Positions 39,574 through 45,827 of a stretch of 64,000 nt of DNA are shown here, piece after piece. The DNA is taken from NCBI GenBank assembly GCA_963707505.1, contig CAVPQB010000006.1:448001-512000 (forward strand), given 5' to 3'. Under the pieces are notes generated by a model. The model had not been told where the DNA came from, did not search any database, and saw only the letters and a program-made list of their open reading frames with translations. Numbering within the stretch: position 1 is the stretch's first letter; each line of letters starts with the position of its first letter. Position numbers and translations under genes: made by a program. The stretch is from an uncultured Gemmatimonadales bacterium (GTDB taxonomy: Bacteria > Gemmatimonadota > Gemmatimonadetes > Gemmatimonadales > Gemmatimonadaceae).

Positions 39574-40539
39574 TCACAAAGTGGTAACAATTCGAGCAGG
39601 ATTTGGCTTCTTCATTGCCTGTCCCCAGAGGTCGCCGACCTCCTCGAGGCGGGCGGCCATGGTGCGAACGGTGAAGTCTCTTGGGTCCAGGGCGGGTGTC
39701 AGCTCGTCCCAGTCGATGGGCGCGGATACCGTTGCCTCTGGACGGGCCCGTACGCCATAGGCGGCCGCGACGGTCTTGCCTCGGGCGTTCTGGCCGAAGT
39801 CCACGTAGATCTTCGAACGGCCCCGCTCACTTATCGATCGCACGACTGTCGCGGACTGCGGATGGGCGCCGGCAACCGCTTCGGCAATCAGGCGGGGGAC
39901 TCGCTCCGCGACGGCGTCCGTGGAGTTGGCCGGAAGCGGGATGACGATGTGGAGTCCGGTCGCACCGGATGTCTTGATGCCCGCATGAAGGCCGAGATGA
40001 TCGAGCGCTTCCTTCACCCATAGCGCGACTTCGATGACACGCGCGAACGGAGATTTGGGACCGGGATCGAGATCTATGACGGTGAAGTCGGGGTTACCCA
40101 GCGATCCCACTCGCACGTTCCACGGATTGCACTCGAAGGCGCCGATCTGGGTGCAGTAGAGAGTGGTGCCAAGCGTGCCGCCGATGATGCGTTGCTGGAC
40201 TTCTCCAGCGGCCGACTTTATCGACTCCACGTGGACGACGTCGGGTGGATTGGGCGGAGCCTTTTGCTGGAAGAAGAATTTGCCAGTGACGCCGTCGGGA
40301 AAACGCTTGAGGGACAGAGGGCGATCAACCAGCACCGTGCGGAGATACGGCCACACGCTCGTGTAATAGCGCATGACTTCGCCCTTGGTGACCCTGGGCT
40401 TCGGAAAGAAGATCTTCGCAAGGCTCGACACCTTCAACGAACTGTCGCGCCCGAGTTGAATCACTCCGTCGCCGCTGCCGCTCTCGATGGCCTGAAGTTG
40501 CTCGGTGATTTTCCGGAGCGCTGCAGCGGACGGCGTCAT
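39574..40539 (-). CDS. ligD: Stand-alone LigD primase-polymerase domain (NHEJ)
   Basis: TKGEVMRYY, KRFPDG, FFQQK, IDLDP, KTSGATGLH, YVDFGQN, VSAP. Confidence 0.92.
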   Translation of the reverse strand: MTPSAAALRKITEQLQAIESGSGDGVIQLGRDSSLKVSSLAKIFFPKPRVTKGEVMRYYTSVWPYLRTVLVDRPLSLKRFPDGVTGKFFFQQKAPPNPPDVVHVESIKSAAGEVQQRIIGGTLGTTLYCTQIGAFECNPWNVRVGSLGNPDFTVIDLDPGPKSPFARVIEVALWVKEALDHLGLHAGIKTSGATGLHIVIPLPANSTDAVAERVPRLIAEAVAGAHPQSATVVRSISERGRSKIYVDFGQNARGKTVAAAYGVRARPEATVSAPIDWDELTPALDPRDFTVRTMAARLEEVGDLWGQAMKKPNPARIVTTL

Positions 40540-40549
40540 GCAGCTGCGA

Positions 40550-41397
40550 TCAGCGTGATGAATGCCAGACGCGCGTGCCGTCGGCTATCTCGTCCATGGT
40601 GCGGTTTGTCGTCACCGACTTCACGTACTTCGTGGTGAGTGCCGATTCGCTTTCGGGATGCGCGTCCTCGTCGCGATGCTTGATGAGGAGCCATGATGGC
40701 TTCGATGCGCTTCTGCCAAAACCGCGCGTACGAACGAGTGCGTAGGATCCCTTGATGCGTTTTCCGTGGAAGTTGATCTTGAGCTCGCCGTGCTCGTACT
40801 GATCGTGTGCAGCCGAGTTCATGTCATCTTCAAGTGGATTCTCGATCTCGTATGTGCCGTTGTCCCACAGCATCACCGTACCGCCGCCGTACTCACCAGA
40901 CGGGATCGTTCCCTCGAAGGTGTTGTACTCGACGGGGTGATCCTCGACCTGCATCGCGAGGCGCTTCACGCTGGGATCGGCGGATGGGCCTTTTGGTACG
41001 GCCCAACTCTTCATCACTCCATCGATCTCGAGTCGGAGGTCGTAATGGAGTTGAGTAGCGGCGTGCTTCTGAATCACGAACTGGAGTCTGTTCGCCGCTG
41101 CGGAGCGTGAGGACTTTCGCGCGCGCGAAGATGCGCGCGAAGATGCGCCCGAAGGCTCCGCCGTTTTCTCGAAGTCACGTTTGCGCTGGTATTCCGTCAG
41201 CTGCTCGGCGGCGCTCAGCGCTTTCTTCGGCGCAGTTTTGCTTGCGCGCTCTTGCTTGCGCTCTTGCTTGCGGTTTTGCTGGAACTTTTGCGCGCCGTCT
41301 TCGCCGCCGTTTTGCTTGCTGCGGTCGTGGTGCGCGTTACCGACTTTCTCGCCGGTCTTGACGTCGTCTTCTTCGCGGTCTTTTTGCGAGCAGCCAT
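40550..41397 (-). CDS. ligD: LigD 3'-phosphoesterase domain with an N-terminal histone-H1-like tail; 2-nt frameshift near 41246
   Basis: MAARKKTAKK... joins SKTAPKKALSAAEQLTEYQRKRDFEKTAEP...FVIQKHAATQLHYDLRLE..SWAVPKGP..EDHP..YGGG if an extra GC in a repeat is removed. Confidence 0.85.
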
Positions 41398-41461
41398 GAT
41401 CAGCGTTGCAAGGTTTGCCAGCGGTGCATGAAACAGAAAAGATCGGACGACGCGATTCGCA

Positions 41462-41671
41462 TCATCCGATCTTCACGACGTCGGCAGCTTGCGGGCCTTT
41501 CTGACCCTGAACGATTTCGAACTCGACCTTGTCGCCTTCAGCGAGCGACTTGAAGCCGTCCGATTTTACCGCGCTGTAATGAACGAACACATCCGGGCCG
41601 CCTTCGCGTGATATGAAGCCGAAGCCCTTGGCGTCGTTGAACCACTTGACAGTTCCCTTGATCCGTTCCAT
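41462..41671 (-). CDS. Cold-shock protein (CspA family)
   Basis: [27 protein letters not shown]. Confidence 0.96.
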
Positions 41672-41718
41672 GCCCGGGGTTTCCTCCGGAGTTTATCCGG
41701 GGCAAGTTTTGTGCACCA

Positions 41719-41931
41719 TCATGCTGCGCCAGCTATGTAACGCGCGATGCGCCCACATTTGACACAGCGCAGCGTCACGTGCGACTGCGGTGGTGGCGGC
41801 GTAATGTGTGGCTCGCGCTCGATGTTCGCAGCGCCGCAAGCGGGGCAGCTCAATGGATCGCCAGTGCGATCTCTGCTTACGAGTGCCAGGACCTGGGCGG
41901 GGTTGTAAGTATTCGGTCGGGGTTTGCGCAT
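41719..41931 (-). CDS. Small zinc-ribbon protein
   Basis: CPACG and CVKCG pairs. Confidence 0.65.
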   Translation of the reverse strand: MRKPRPNTYNPAQVLALVSRDRTGDPLSCPACGAANIEREPHITPPPPQSHVTLRCVKCGRIARYIAGAA

Positions 41932-42200: not shown

Positions 42201-43226
42201 CTAATCCCAGTCGTGTCCTCTTCTATAGACGTGGCGTTTCACGCGCCACGGCTTGGTGTCGCTGGTCTCTCGGCCCGATGCAAAGTTGGTAGGGTCGTCG
42301 ATCGAATCGCTCATGTCGCACGCCTTCGCCGACGCCTCGTCGGCCCAGTGTACTATCTCGGCCTCCACGGTCATTGGCTGCACGGGGCTTCCGAATTCGA
42401 GGCTGCCATGATGAGACAGGATCATGTGCTGGAGCTCGAGTATCTGCCCTTCGCTGCAGATCGGAGCGCCGAGCTGGGCAAGTGCGCGCTCGAGCATGAG
42501 CGCGCCCAGGACTACGTGGCCGAGTAGAAGGCCGCAGGGAGTGGTGGAGAAGCCTGTGGGGGCGACGTCGTACGCTTCGACCTTGCCGATGTCGTGCAGC
42601 AGCGCGCCGGCGAAGACCAGATCCTGGTTCGCGCGAGTGGTGCGTGCAGTGGCTCGTGCGATCGAGGCGACCTCGAAGGTGTGGAGTAGGAGGCCGCCGA
42701 GTTTGGCGTGGTGTCCTGCTGGTGATCCCGGAGTGCGCTCGAAGCGGACGCGGAATTCGTCGTTGGCGAAGAAGAGATCGACGACGCTTTTGAGGGTGCG
42801 CGATTGCATTGCTGCACGCTGTTTGTCCATCCAGTCCCAGAGCGCAGTGCAATCGCCGATTGATTCGAGGAACGACAGGACGTCGATCTGATTTTGCGGG
42901 ATGACTCTGAGCGGGGCGCTGAGTGCGAGCTGGCGTTTCGCAGATCCGTTGCGGCCGTAGAGCGCGATGTCGCCAATCGCCTGGACCACCTTGCCGCGGT
43001 CAGCGCCGTCGGCCCAGTCGAGCTTGTCGGACCAGATGGGCGATGTGTCGATTCGGCCGGAGGAATTGCCGAGTGTGAGGATTGCGAACGGGTCGCCGTT
43101 GGCGGTTTTCTTGTCCGCGCGCTCGATCACGAGGAAATCACTCTGGACCCGCTCGCGCTCCTGGAGCGCAGGGATGTTGACGGCTGGCATCGTGATGAAG
43201 GTGATGGTGCGGGGTCGATCCGGCAA
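42201..43226 (-). CDS. yhaM: YhaM/Cbf1-family OB-fold + HD nuclease
   Basis: N-terminal OB fold; HHAKLGGLLLHT, LHDIGK, GHVVLG, SHHGSLEFGSP, HWAD. Confidence 0.88.
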   Translation of the reverse strand: MPDRPRTITFITMPAVNIPALQERERVQSDFLVIERADKKTANGDPFAILTLGNSSGRIDTSPIWSDKLDWADGADRGKVVQAIGDIALYGRNGSAKRQLALSAPLRVIPQNQIDVLSFLESIGDCTALWDWMDKQRAAMQSRTLKSVVDLFFANDEFRVRFERTPGSPAGHHAKLGGLLLHTFEVASIARATARTTRANQDLVFAGALLHDIGKVEAYDVAPTGFSTTPCGLLLGHVVLGALMLERALAQLGAPICSEGQILELQHMILSHHGSLEFGSPVQPMTVEAEIVHWADEASAKACDMSDSIDDPTNFASGRETSDTKPWRVKRHVYRRGHDWD

Positions 43227-43244: not shown

Positions 43245-43273
43245 TTGCTTTCGGTATTTGTTCGGTATAAGCT
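43245..43273 (+). promoter_or_regulatory. Sigma70-type promoter with a direct-repeat operator in the spacer
   Basis: TTGCTT-N17-TAAGCT; TTCGGTAT at 43250 and 43261 (11-bp period, equivalent to TTTC-N7-GTTC). Confidence 0.6.
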
Positions 43274-43300: not shown

Positions 43301-43918
43301 ATGCCGAAAACAGATGTCTGGTTCGATCCAAGCCGGTACGCGACAGTCGCGGAGCGGATAGCGCTGTTCTACAAGAGTCATCCAAACGGGCGGATACTGA
43401 CCGAGCTGGTGAACCGTGATACGGAGTCGGTGACGTTCAAGGCGCTGGTATTTCGGGGCGAGGGGGATACGGTGCCGGCGGCTACGGGGTGGGCGACGGA
43501 GCGTGAGGGGGACGGCGACATCAATACGGTGGCGTGTCTGGAGAACACGGAGACGTCGGCGATCGGGCGGGCGCTGGCGAATCTTGGGTTCACGGCAGCG
43601 AGAGAGCGGCCCAGTATCGAGGAGATGACGAAGGCCGGCCGAACTCGGCGAAACCGCGAAATGGCGGCTAGAAGAGCCGATACTGTCGCCATACTGGCTG
43701 AGCAATCGCCGGAGTACCGGAGCGCCTCGTCCGACTTGCTGGGTCTTCTTCAAGAAGCGCAACGTGCCGGACTGCCGAGTGACCGGGCTCAGCGGCTGCG
43801 CGACCGGCTGGAGCGAGGGCCGGCGATTCTTCCGTCGCGAATGGCTGAGCTGGAGCGGTCGCTGAGGAACTGGCTTTACCGGAAGGAGAATGTCACCGGG
43901 TCTCGTCTATCCCCATGA
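43301..43918 (+). CDS. Rad52/Sak-like single-strand annealing protein (putative)
   Basis: YATVAERI..F..HPNGRI.TE, ATGWA.E, LENTETSAIGRALANLGF resembles phage Rad52-superfamily annealing proteins; helical C-terminus. Confidence 0.65.
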   Translation: MPKTDVWFDPSRYATVAERIALFYKSHPNGRILTELVNRDTESVTFKALVFRGEGDTVPAATGWATEREGDGDINTVACLENTETSAIGRALANLGFTAARERPSIEEMTKAGRTRRNREMAARRADTVAILAEQSPEYRSASSDLLGLLQEAQRAGLPSDRAQRLRDRLERGPAILPSRMAELERSLRNWLYRKENVTGSRLSP

Positions 43919-43955
43919 ACGGCGGAACCTGAGCAGAACATGAAAGGGGGCGGAC

Positions 43956-44672
43956 GTGGAGGGTTGGCGGTTTGGGGAGCGGAGCGACGGGGAGACAGAT
44001 ATCGAGCTGCTGGCTGGGATTCGGCGGAATGAGCTGAATGCGCTACGCACCTTCGTTCTCCGGTTCGAGCCGGTGCTTCTGGACCAGGCTCGGCGACTCT
44101 CCGTAAGCCCGAGCGATCGGGGGACGATCGTAACCGGATTCCTGGACGACATCCTGGTCAAGCTCGCCGATACGAATGCCGAGTCACCGCGGTCGCTGAC
44201 TGCATTCGTGATCACGTCGTTCCGCAACTGCGTGATCGATCTGCATCGCGAGGCGACGGTGCGTGAGCGGCATGCGCGATCGGAGGAGGAGGCGATCGGC
44301 ACGGAGTACGTGGTGCGTGCCACGTGTTCCGAGTTCATGCTGCGCGCGGCGCGGGGGAACGGTGATGGCGAAGAGTCGTCATCGACTGCGGCAGCCAGAC
44401 TGGTTCATGTGCTGTTGGATGGCTGCTCATCGGACGAGCGACAGTTGCTCGTATGGAGCGCGCACCGCGTTCCGTTGCGTGAGTGCGCCGCGTGGCTCGG
44501 AATCGGTTACGACGCCGCAAAGCAGAAATTGTCGCGGCTGCGCGCGCGGCTCGTACGCGACAGCATCACGCACCTGTCCTCCCTTGCCGACCCGGATCGC
44601 AGAGAGCTCTCGCGTCTGCTGAGTCGCGCCGGCATACGAATCAATACTGAAGGCATGAGGTCCACAGCATGA
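43956..44672 (+). CDS. Divergent ECF-like sigma70 factor with C-terminal extension
   Basis: DIELL..IR..E.NAL..F..RF.P.L, SLTAFVITSFRNCVIDLHR (region 2.3-2.4), DERQLL...LRECAAWLGIGYDAAKQKLSRLRARL (region 4). Confidence 0.75.
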   Translation: MEGWRFGERSDGETDIELLAGIRRNELNALRTFVLRFEPVLLDQARRLSVSPSDRGTIVTGFLDDILVKLADTNAESPRSLTAFVITSFRNCVIDLHREATVRERHARSEEEAIGTEYVVRATCSEFMLRAARGNGDGEESSSTAAARLVHVLLDGCSSDERQLLVWSAHRVPLRECAAWLGIGYDAAKQKLSRLRARLVRDSITHLSSLADPDRRELSRLLSRAGIRINTEGMRSTA

Positions 44673-45406
44673 AGGGAGAGAATCAGAAGCATTCATATCG
44701 TCAAGAGGTCGATGGTGGCGACGATACCAATTCATTGATCCGGCTCGTGGGCGATGCGTTGGATGCGAGCGGTGATTGCAGCGCGTACGAGAACGATCGG
44801 TTTCTCGCATGGCTCGAGCGTGAAGTGCATGGACGGAGTTCTGTTGCGGATCGGCAGTCGAGCGAGCGTGCGGCGCAACAGATCGCGAAACGCGCTCAGG
44901 CGCGCATTCGTGCGGCTCGCGTAGCTGCAGCGCTGCCGGCGCGTTCGTTCAGGGTTCGTCCGGCCGCACTGGTGGGGGACTTCGATCACGTCGCGAGAGC
45001 AGCTTCGGAGTCCGGTTGCGCGCCGTGGGTGGAATCGCTCGCGGTCGCGGCAGGTACCGGGCGTGAGATCTGGGACGAGCCGTGTGAGCAGTGGGTGGAG
45101 CTGCCAACCGGATTTGCGGGCGCGGGCAATCTCGCGCTCACCGTTACGGGCGACAGCATGACGCCGTGTCTCGAGAGCGGTGACGTGATCCTCGTCAACA
45201 CACGCAAGGCTGTGACGCGCGATTGCATGGTCGTCGCGCGGCGCGCGGAGAATGGCTACGTGGTGAAGCACGTCACGAAGTGTGGGCGGGCTGCGTTGGA
45301 GCTGTCATCGTTCAACAGCGCGTACGAGCCGTTCGTGATCGATCGAGTGCCGGGTGCTGTGGTGGGCGTGGTGGTAGCGAAGCTCGTGCGTTGTGAAGAA
45401 GCGTGA
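44669..45406 (+). CDS. S24 (LexA/UmuD-type) self-cleaving peptidase protein with an unrecognised N-terminal domain
   Basis: Cleavage site VAAG, catalytic Ser in VTGDSM, catalytic Lys in VVKH; ATGA overlap with the sigma gene. Confidence 0.88.
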   Translation: MKGENQKHSYRQEVDGGDDTNSLIRLVGDALDASGDCSAYENDRFLAWLEREVHGRSSVADRQSSERAAQQIAKRAQARIRAARVAAALPARSFRVRPAALVGDFDHVARAASESGCAPWVESLAVAAGTGREIWDEPCEQWVELPTGFAGAGNLALTVTGDSMTPCLESGDVILVNTRKAVTRDCMVVARRAENGYVVKHVTKCGRAALELSSFNSAYEPFVIDRVPGAVVGVVVAKLVRCEEA

Positions 45407-45566
45407 GAGAGCTGGCAGAGTAGTGGTGCACGGAGAGTGGTGCAGGTATTCCGGCTGTATGTGGCGGCAGTTGCAACGCGTGGGTTCGGTAGGCGAAGTG
45501 ATTGGGTATGTGGACTGGATATGTAGTGCCTGGCGTGATGAAGAAGAATATTTGAACGGAGGGAAG

Positions 45567-45827
45567 ATGCAGCAGGACGTATCGACACAGAACAAGATCA
45601 CGAACGCAGTAGCGACTGCAATAGCCATAGCGGGGGCTATAGTTGCGTCACCGGCTGCGATGGAAAAGCTGCCGGGAACGGTCGTGACGATTCTCAAGAC
45701 TGCTACGACGCTCGGCAATACGACACAGCCGTTGATCGTAACAGTGATTGGAATAATGGTGGCTGCAATAACGCATCCACCGAGTTGGTTGAGCGGATTG
45801 GCGAGCGGAGTGCGAAGACGGTTGTGA
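45567..45827 (+). CDS. Small 2-TM membrane protein
   Basis: GGAGGG RBS; two hydrophobic segments and a basic C-terminus (VRRRL). Confidence 0.6.
   Translation: MQQDVSTQNKITNAVATAIAIAGAIVASPAAMEKLPGTVVTILKTATTLGNTTQPLIVTVIGIMVAAITHPPSWLSGLASGVRRRL

Follow-up and report, generated by a model that had tools for sequence, protein, structure and literature searches.

A LexA-type autopeptidase gene paired with a divergent sigma factor gene in Gemmatimonadota: a predicted anti-sigma factor under probable SOS control

What does a LexA-type autopeptidase do when its gene stands where an anti-sigma gene would be expected? The question is raised by a three-gene cassette in a 64,000-nucleotide stretch of an uncultured Gemmatimonadales genome (GCA_963707505.1, contig CAVPQB010000006.1, positions 448,001 to 512,000), referred to here as the window. 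Relatives place the source genome (G000) in the Gemmatimonadota. The cassette consists of three co-oriented open reading frames (ORFs) on the plus strand: gene 1 at 43301 to 43918 (205 amino acids [aa]), a sigma factor gene at 43956 to 44672 (238 aa), and an S24 peptidase gene at 44669 to 45406 (245 aa). The sigma ORF starts with GTG, and an ATGA overlap joins its stop codon to the S24 start. All three genes are real and conserved in the Gemmatimonadota.

A sequence-only reading had proposed that the S24 protein is an anti-sigma factor cut on filaments of RecA and single-stranded DNA (ssDNA; the filament is abbreviated RecA*), and that the freed sigma activates repair genes, inverting the LexA logic. 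The switch itself gained support from strict gene pairing, an N terminus without a helix-turn-helix (HTH), and a predicted wrap around sigma2 and sigma4. Repair-gene activation and the inverted logic were not supported. We consider it fairly probable that relief of LexA repression, RecA*-triggered self-cleavage, and Clp degradation of the anti-sigma factor free a sigma with a small secretion or antagonism regulon.

The sigma-S24 pair

The S24 gene encodes a predicted anti-sigma factor with a four-helix N-terminal domain and a LexA/CI-type S24 autopeptidase domain. PF00717 spans residues 125 to 236 with 54.6 bits (cut-off, 23.3) and is present in 120 of 120 homologues. The putative cleavage site A128/G129 is encoded at 45050 to 45055, and the putative dyad residues S163 and K200 at 45155 and 45266 (all plus strand). 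A127, A128, G129, S163, and K200 are invariant in the 120 homologues, so that the intact Ala-Gly site and Ser/Lys dyad described earlier hold across the family. W48 is kept in 117. This conservation and the SOS context described below point to RecA*-stimulated self-cleavage. The best structural matches were LexA, CI, and UmuD, including RecA-bound forms. The match to T. maritima LexA had a Z score of 13.4 and a root mean square deviation of 2.9 Å over 125 aligned residues. These whole-model searches aligned residues 115 to 243 only.

The AlphaFold model places the N-terminal domain at about residues 18 to 88 (44720 to 44932, plus strand). It contains helices at 18 to 34, 38 to 41, 43 to 55, and 59 to 88, the fourth being 30 residues long. 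Strands, a helix at 105 to 114, and the S24 core follow. The protein lacks the N-terminal HTH of the LexA/CI repressors: 0 of 120 homologues match any HTH family at an E value of ≤0.1, as the sequence-only reading had suspected. It also lacks the features of UmuD. About 120 residues precede the cleavage site, unlike the short N-terminal arm of UmuD, and no umuC was seen among the ORFs of 36 to 52 kb of the window, read by eye. An Atlas search with the N-terminal domain gave no usable match. No transmembrane segment is indicated, as reported before: hydropathy over 19 residues peaks at 1.79 in a window that starts at residue 222, and in the model this window belongs to the beta core of the S24 domain.

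The sigma gene encodes a divergent extracytoplasmic function (ECF)-type sigma factor. Profile and model show the sigma2 and sigma4 domains, a conserved motif in the linker, and a helical extension at the C terminus. It has no sigma3, as is the case for ECF (group 4) sigma factors. The single sequence matched TIGR02937 with 27 bits against a curated cut-off of 43. The family profile aligned with both sigma2 and sigma4 of CnrH (E value, 5.6e-8) and of SigH. At an E value of ≤0.1, Sigma70_r4_2 was found in 51 of 83 family members and Sigma70_r2 in 12 of 83. The model is all-helical, and its extra C-terminal helix agrees with the extension noted earlier. Its Foldseek list was made of sigma70-family chains (best E value, 1.5e-3). 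The absence of a DAED motif applies to this copy, which has DRGT, but not to the family, which retains E/D54 (78/83) and D65 (75/83). Position 57 is acidic in 19 of 83 members. The acidic motif of region 2.2 is partly kept, and the protein may bind core polymerase and initiate transcription.

The pair was surveyed in 401 genomes of the phylum, with the S24 query and the sigma profile run separately. The S24 query matched 23 genomes, one of them with a weak non-family match (G011). The sigma profile matched 24, and 22 were common to both searches. The unpaired sigma matches were in G194, whose contig stops just after the sigma gene, and in G238, which has a distant lone copy. In a metagenome set of 80 loci found with the S24 alignment, the sigma gene lay directly upstream of the S24 gene in all 73 loci with at least 250 bp of room. 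The pair is strictly conserved, as the anti-sigma proposal had anticipated. The cultured strain Gemmatirosa kalamazoonensis KBS708 has the pair, together with the TTCGG repeat box described below. The sigma family includes 359 clusters at 50% identity that score E values of <1e-30. Single-protein or motif searches beyond the Gemmatimonadota returned named matches from Gemmatimonadota, except for one unidentified bacterium. A 453-aa sigma-S24 "fusion" (P0063) has its middle part out of frame and was taken as a frameshift artifact.

The predicted sigma-S24 complex scored 0.82, 0.82, and 0.81, and the best control scored 0.00; the modeling suggested with the original proposal thus favored an interaction. 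Among solved complexes, 116 of 157 reach the score mark, as do 2 of 215 mismatched pairs, a calibration that applies only roughly here, as our own alignments were used. Contacts agreed by at least 87% between runs, and the partner had a predicted local distance difference test score of at least 78. The partner interface consists of residues 20 to 84 only. Helix 1 lies on sigma4 (sigma residues 165 to 169), and helix 4 lies on sigma2 (residues 25 to 34 and 67 to 68). Parts of the sigma4 HTH region and of sigma2 are buried under the partner in the model. Passages of PMC7406223 describe the same dual sigma4/sigma2 contacts for anti-sigma factors of class I. The predicted domain has the arrangement of a class I anti-sigma domain (ASDI), in that it has four helices, the first of them on sigma4 and the fourth on sigma2. 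Its N-terminal profile did not match RseA or any solved chain, and no PDB sequence scored below an E value of 0.2. Alignment to RseA alone with hhalign gave 0.07%, in a weak single-sequence test. None of the 120 homologues matched a Pfam anti-sigma family. On the strength of the model, the S24 protein is likely to bind this sigma as an anti-sigma factor.

Two DNA motifs at the cassette

The sequence-only reading covered the genes and left out two DNA motifs, a TTCGG repeat and YGTMAC-N7-YGTST. The first lies in a sigma70-type promoter, TTGCTT-17-TAAGCT, at 43245 to 43273 (plus strand), whose spacer holds the direct repeat TTCGG-N6-TTCGG (43250 to 43265). Of 35 metagenome loci with enough upstream sequence, 34 have the repeat ahead of the cassette. 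Loci without gene 1 have the box directly before the sigma gene. G000 contains 22 exact copies. Two lie ahead of a lexA, and recA, uvrB, ruvB, gyrB, a uvrD-like gene, and an imuA-like operon also have a copy in front of them. One lies upstream of gyrA, divergently, and several are not in an obvious promoter. In five of five genomes without an S24-protein match, the repeat precedes recA and, in tandem, one lexA (one mismatch allowed). Because it precedes recA and lexA also in cassette-free genomes, TTCGG-N6-TTCGG is most likely the LexA operator of Gemmatimonadota. The cassette promoter appears to share the layout of a LexA regulon member, with the operator common to lexA and recA overlapping the promoter.

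The operon promoter carries this probable LexA box, so the cassette would stand under SOS control and would not replace it; the box argues against an inversion of LexA logic. Because the box also precedes recA, uvrB, ruvB, and the uvrD-like helicase gene, these repair genes probably stay under LexA, and the activation by sigma that had been proposed is not supported. No earlier LexA box or SOS regulon for Gemmatimonadota was found in the literature, mainly open access.

Two canonical lexA genes were seen in G000, at C5:17764-17807 (L022) and C3:213064-213768 (L021). Tandem boxes lie upstream of the C5 lexA only; this copy is frameshifted, and the C5 region of the assembly looks error-prone. 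G003 likewise has a second lexA without a box. Contig C3 also encodes an imuA-imuB-dnaE2-like operon (named by eye). Boxes at C3:426245, before gyrB, and at C4:396692, upstream of gyrA in the opposite orientation, suggest that gyrase belongs to the SOS regulon of this lineage. Further boxes precede an Rv2578c/PA0069-like radical SAM gene (C2:43713; L068) and a 219-aa ORF without assignment (C5:117283; L070).

The second motif has the general form YGTMAC-N7-YGTST and occurs before the sigma gene, small exported-protein genes, and several RHS genes. At the cassette it reads TGTCAC-N7-CGTCT (43891 to 43908, plus strand). This putative sigma promoter lies inside the 3' end of gene 1 and is the best-scoring site of the genome. 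Among the 41 genome loci from which the weight matrix was built, 28 have YGTCAC-N7-YGYCT ahead of the sigma gene. Variants of single lineages, for example the one in G421, escape the matrix. Among 55 metagenome windows upstream of the sigma gene, 45 contain the motif in its exact two-variant form (against a mean of 0.035 after shuffling); the second variant was defined on the same set.

Covariation was used to ask which protein reads the motif. There were 91 sigma loci, 12 of them without a picked site. L039 (mis-picked site) and L226 (doubtful site) were left out. The remaining 77 were reduced to 60 at <80% identity, and 230 sigma columns were ranked. The tree was a quick version. Base 4 of the hexamer is best predicted by sigma residue 190, first of the 230, with V paired to A in 32 loci and Q, K, or H paired to C in 28 (60/60). 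Base 14 is best predicted by residue 95, also first of 230: D goes with C in 21 of 21, and N never does (28/28). The two residue-base pairs assort independently in at least four lineages, and all four combinations occur on the tree. Motif base 17 has no single best residue, as expected for a clade-level signal. By hhalign, residue 190 corresponds to RpoE S172, and residue 95 corresponds to RpoE N84. Passages of PMC7776599 report that these positions set the -34 and -13/-12 bases. The motif is bipartite and putatively autoregulatory, and it covaries with S172- and N84-equivalent residues, as in ECF promoters. It is very probably read directly by this sigma.

The spacing is unusual. The gap is 7 bp in the 45 of 55 loci and never 16 to 18 bp, unlike the -35/-10 spacer of about 16 to 18 bp of ECF promoters. 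ECF41 promoter elements, given as TGTCACA-n16-CGTC in passages of PMC3426412, have the two elements exactly 10 bp farther apart than they are here. The sigma may initiate with sigma4 displaced by one helical turn; it may bind DNA without being part of a normal holoenzyme; or the true -10 may be a weak element at 24 to 28. We lean slightly toward a holoenzyme that reads the motif as a promoter with a 7-bp spacer.

An ECF promoter of ordinary geometry is unlikely and would leave the anti-sigma switch unchanged. The hexamer would be the -35 element, a weak -10 element would lie at 24 to 28, and the middle element would be read by the linker or the C-terminal extension. There is some conservation at 25 to 30 (xRTGAG in clade A, TGGA in clade B), at the distance described for ECF41 in passages of PMC3426412. 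However, the information there is below that at 12 to 22 and differs between clades, and the N84-equivalent residue tracks position 14. A start near 35 would also cut off the Shine-Dalgarno-like run at 27 to 34 in L059 and L032, with the start at 39 to 41.

Less likely still, the sigma-like protein is a non-dissociable, site-specific activator or co-repressor that works on the compact motif with the housekeeping holoenzyme. It would bind by itself or together with a cleavable dimerizing partner, the S24 protein. Comparable cases are UmuDAb, which has a co-repressor, and PafBC, which adapts sigmaA. The 7-bp spacer, far outside the 15 to 18 bp given for ECF promoters in passages of PMC7776599, fits such a factor, as do the degenerate region 2.2 and the usual dimerization of S24 domains. 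On the other hand, base 14 varies together with a residue of sigma2.4, as a base of a -10 element would, and no conserved TAnnnT element lies beside the motif. The complex model also hides parts of the sigma4 HTH region and sigma2 beneath the partner.

Release of sigma and its target genes

In the mechanism that we favor, LexA would repress the operon promoter, as motif placement suggests. Damage would lift repression, and sigma and its partner would be co-translated. Sigma would then be held through sigma2 and sigma4 by the N-terminal helices of the partner, as in the complex model. RecA* would trigger self-cleavage at A128/G129 by S163 and K200, a step consistent with family membership and the invariant residues. 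A second step is needed after cleavage because the cut leaves the sigma-binding domain whole. The fragment left by the cut would end in VAA in 98 of 120 homologues, AAA in 12, and IAA in 10. VAA is reportedly the ClpX tag on LexA and RseA fragments; a literature search on the VAA degron found nothing usable. clpX is present in the genome, and ClpXP could clear the sigma-bound fragment and free sigma. Passages of PMC4598750 describe such clearance of RseA and RsiW fragments once a cut exposes a new C terminus.

RecA*-dependent release of sigma is probable from these sequence features. Cleavage by another signal, or as a constitutive timer, would keep the anti-sigma pair and is quite improbable. 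In favor of it, residues 91 to 114 add strands and a helix without counterpart in the LexA/CI matches. Against this, the best structural matches are LexA, CI, and UmuD, RecA-bound forms included, and the operon has a probable SOS box.

Freed sigma would transcribe from YGTMAC-N7-YGTS sites. The predicted targets are its own gene and its partner, giving feedback, and in some lineages a CHAP gene and a small membrane gene. Further targets would be small exported proteins and RHS-repeat genes, including one of 2,284 aa in this genome. In 39 of 70 loci, a further copy in the clade B form, GTAAC-N5-GGTGTGCRTCT, follows the S24 gene within 1.2 kb. This copy is nearly always at the S24 stop, before a small gene with a signal-like N terminus. 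Elsewhere, the downstream copy precedes small membrane proteins, an RHS gene directly, or a 180- to 230-aa exported protein followed by an RHS gene. In the genus of G000, the S24 gene and the downstream copy are separated by the CHAP gene and a gene for an 86-aa hydrophobic protein. An automated match between upstream and downstream DNA was noisy in GC-rich loci. G000 has a site before a 2,284-aa RHS and Ig-domain gene at C6:421065, about 71 kb from the cassette.

Of the 24 long RHS ORFs in sigma-bearing genomes, 8 had a strong site; in other genomes, none of 8 did, and 0.014 was expected per window. Among the eight with a site, three look orthologous in close relatives, and one is probably inside a coding region. 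Two of the 24 ORFs and one of the 8 had no upstream DNA, and 4 of 12 negative regions had no long ORF. Judged by the motif, the apparent targets are the sigma gene itself, small exported-protein genes, and RHS genes, and not the repair genes proposed earlier. A large regulon was rejected because a genome-wide scan gave no excess of the motif at gap 7 (38 versus 21 to 49 sites). The chances that the output is antagonism or lysis appear evenly balanced.

Several loci were of interest beside these targets. By eye, an HExxH-like motif can be seen at the C terminus of the 2,284-aa RHS protein (L132:3066-10917; G000 C6:421065-428916). Its gene is followed by an ORF of 169 aa that has a signal-like start and may be an immunity gene; a LigD-polymerase paralogue lies upstream. 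In G069 (C2:1243000-1364000), the cassette lies within an array of about 20 RHS core matches. The metagenome loci L189 to L248 encode, immediately downstream of the S24 stop, conserved small proteins, unassigned, with a signal-like N terminus and a TLR(V/I)E motif. This family is the commonest target of the second motif, and short inverted repeats follow some sites. The lone sigma gene of G123 (L130) has its own motif variant (CGACT) upstream and before an exported-protein gene and RHS gene.

It is barely credible that the motif serves at gene ends as an element of RNA or of recombination and is no promoter: stop codons are overlapped by both copies in clade B, and some of these have short inverted repeats behind them (by eye), but clade A copies lie about 40 to 110 bp before RHS starts, far from stop codons, and motif bases covary with DNA-reading residues of sigma.

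Other observations weigh against the damage-released sigma. Its core-binding region 2.2 is degenerate, and the 7-bp spacer misfits the usual holoenzyme geometry. The complex score may stem from likeness to solved ECF/anti-sigma structures. Across the genome, TTCGG repeats at this spacing are not enriched relative to other spacings (22 versus 8 to 39). The hexamer overlaps TAA stop codons in one large clade, and no target motif was detectable ahead of sigma in the plasmid copy of Gemmatirosa. Just 8 of the 24 long-RHS windows have a strong site. RHS genes do not co-occur with the cassette (16 of 32 genomes with it, 14 of 30 without; one unpublished genome was left out). Two sigma-family genes have no adjacent S24 gene (G123 C104 and G238 C12). 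Both adjoin RHS genes, and the two full cassettes of G123 could provide a partner in trans for its lone sigma.

Neighboring genes and comparison with known systems

Gene 1 encodes a phage-related protein with a putative dsRBD fold, possibly a Rad52/Sak/Mgm101-like single-strand annealing protein. It matched phrog_11717 (E value, 8e-27), a family of unknown function, and had no Pfam match and no PDB sequence match. In the ESM Atlas it fell among PF27148 dsRBD-like clusters at 0.96, with one cluster containing 20% SSAP_Sak. One of 17 records of its phage homologues is labeled "mgM101-like protein." The earlier name, annealing protein, therefore stands as a lead from the Atlas and phage labels, with no Pfam match behind it. 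Gene 1 was present in 42 of 45 metagenome loci with room and is a usual but dispensable member. At L126/L013 (G024 C138), an extra S24-domain gene of the same family replaces gene 1 directly upstream of sigma. A current prophage location found no support, as viral contigs contained no relative of sigma or S24.

Downstream, a probable decayed remnant of a CHAP-domain gene lies at 45424 to 45486 (plus strand), with 48% identity over 21 aa (E value, 0.004) to the CHAP protein of L027. The L027 protein matches PF05257 at its cut-off. The CHAP gene is intact in relatives and overlaps the S24 stop there. An 86-aa hydrophobic protein (45567 to 45827, plus strand; hydropathy peak, 1.92) is kept downstream in genus-level loci. 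At a guess it is holin-like, with a sub-threshold holin match (E value, 0.12). Upstream, a YhaM-like HD exoribonuclease gene (42201 to 43226, minus strand; NF010007, E value of 2e-31, below cut-off) is divergent and shares the intergenic region. The same synteny in close relatives L024, L026, and L029 is context only. Upstream of it, genes for LigD polymerase and phosphoesterase modules, a cold-shock gene, and a small zinc-ribbon gene (39574 to 41931, minus strand) are kept in close relatives.

No described link from a RecA-ssDNA signal to sigma factor release was found in the literature, mainly open access. The ECF re-classification paper (PMC7826278) does not mention S24, LexA, or SOS, and the passages covered of a sigma/anti-sigma review (PMC4598750) do not mention RecA. 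A term search of PMC3919608 found no described case. Searches for short-spacer ECF promoters and for the function of slr1353 found nothing usable. Soil Gemmatimonadota appear to have joined the LexA self-cutting domain to a sigma factor inhibitor, with an exported, probably antagonistic, output. Only tentatively do we propose, as a whole, a new class of sigma control in these bacteria. It would combine a soluble anti-sigma factor carrying its own RecA*-triggered LexA-type protease, a short-spacer ECF sigma whose sigma4 site is one helical turn closer to -10 than in ECF41-type promoters, and damage-induced RHS-toxin export and lysis. If true, it would provide a direct route from the RecA-ssDNA signal to sigma release, and the 7-bp spacer would challenge the fixed geometry of sigma70-family promoters. 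Motif searches restricted to gaps of 15 to 18 bp, the range in passages of PMC7776599, would miss it. A probable LexA box and SOS regulon are now available for Gemmatimonadota, and the parts could serve as an orthogonal DNA damage switch.

The cassette resembles several known systems. Like sigmaE-RseA of E. coli and sigmaW-RsiW of B. subtilis, it encodes a co-translated pair. The helix 1-sigma4 and helix 4-sigma2 contacts of these class I pairs, as far as passages on them go, are predicted here, and ClpXP would likewise finish release after the cut, as passages of PMC4598750 describe for RseA and RsiW. Unlike them, it has no membrane segment and no site-1 or site-2 protease, but a built-in LexA-like protease, and its N terminus has no sequence match to RseA. 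With ECF41, as described in passages of PMC3426412, it shares the TGTCAC and CGTC elements, a small local regulon, and a C-terminal extension. Unlike in ECF41, the elements are 7 rather than 17 bp apart, the partner is separate and cleavable, and the extension is much shorter.

The S24 protein shares the S24 fold, the Ala-Gly site, and the Ser/Lys dyad with LexA, lambda CI, and UmuD. Unlike these, it has a non-HTH N terminus predicted to bind protein and no UmuC partner seen nearby, and two canonical lexA genes exist besides it. In PrtR/PrtN pyocin control and in LexA-controlled colicin-lysis operons, a RecA*-cleaved regulator likewise stands above a positive activator of toxin and lysis genes. 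The protein that is cut in those systems binds DNA and represses the gene of the activator, whereas here it is predicted to sequester the activator protein itself, a sigma factor. UmuDAb of Acinetobacter is likewise an S24 protein with an atypical N terminus. It is a repressor, whereas the N terminus of the cassette protein is predicted to be occupied by sigma.

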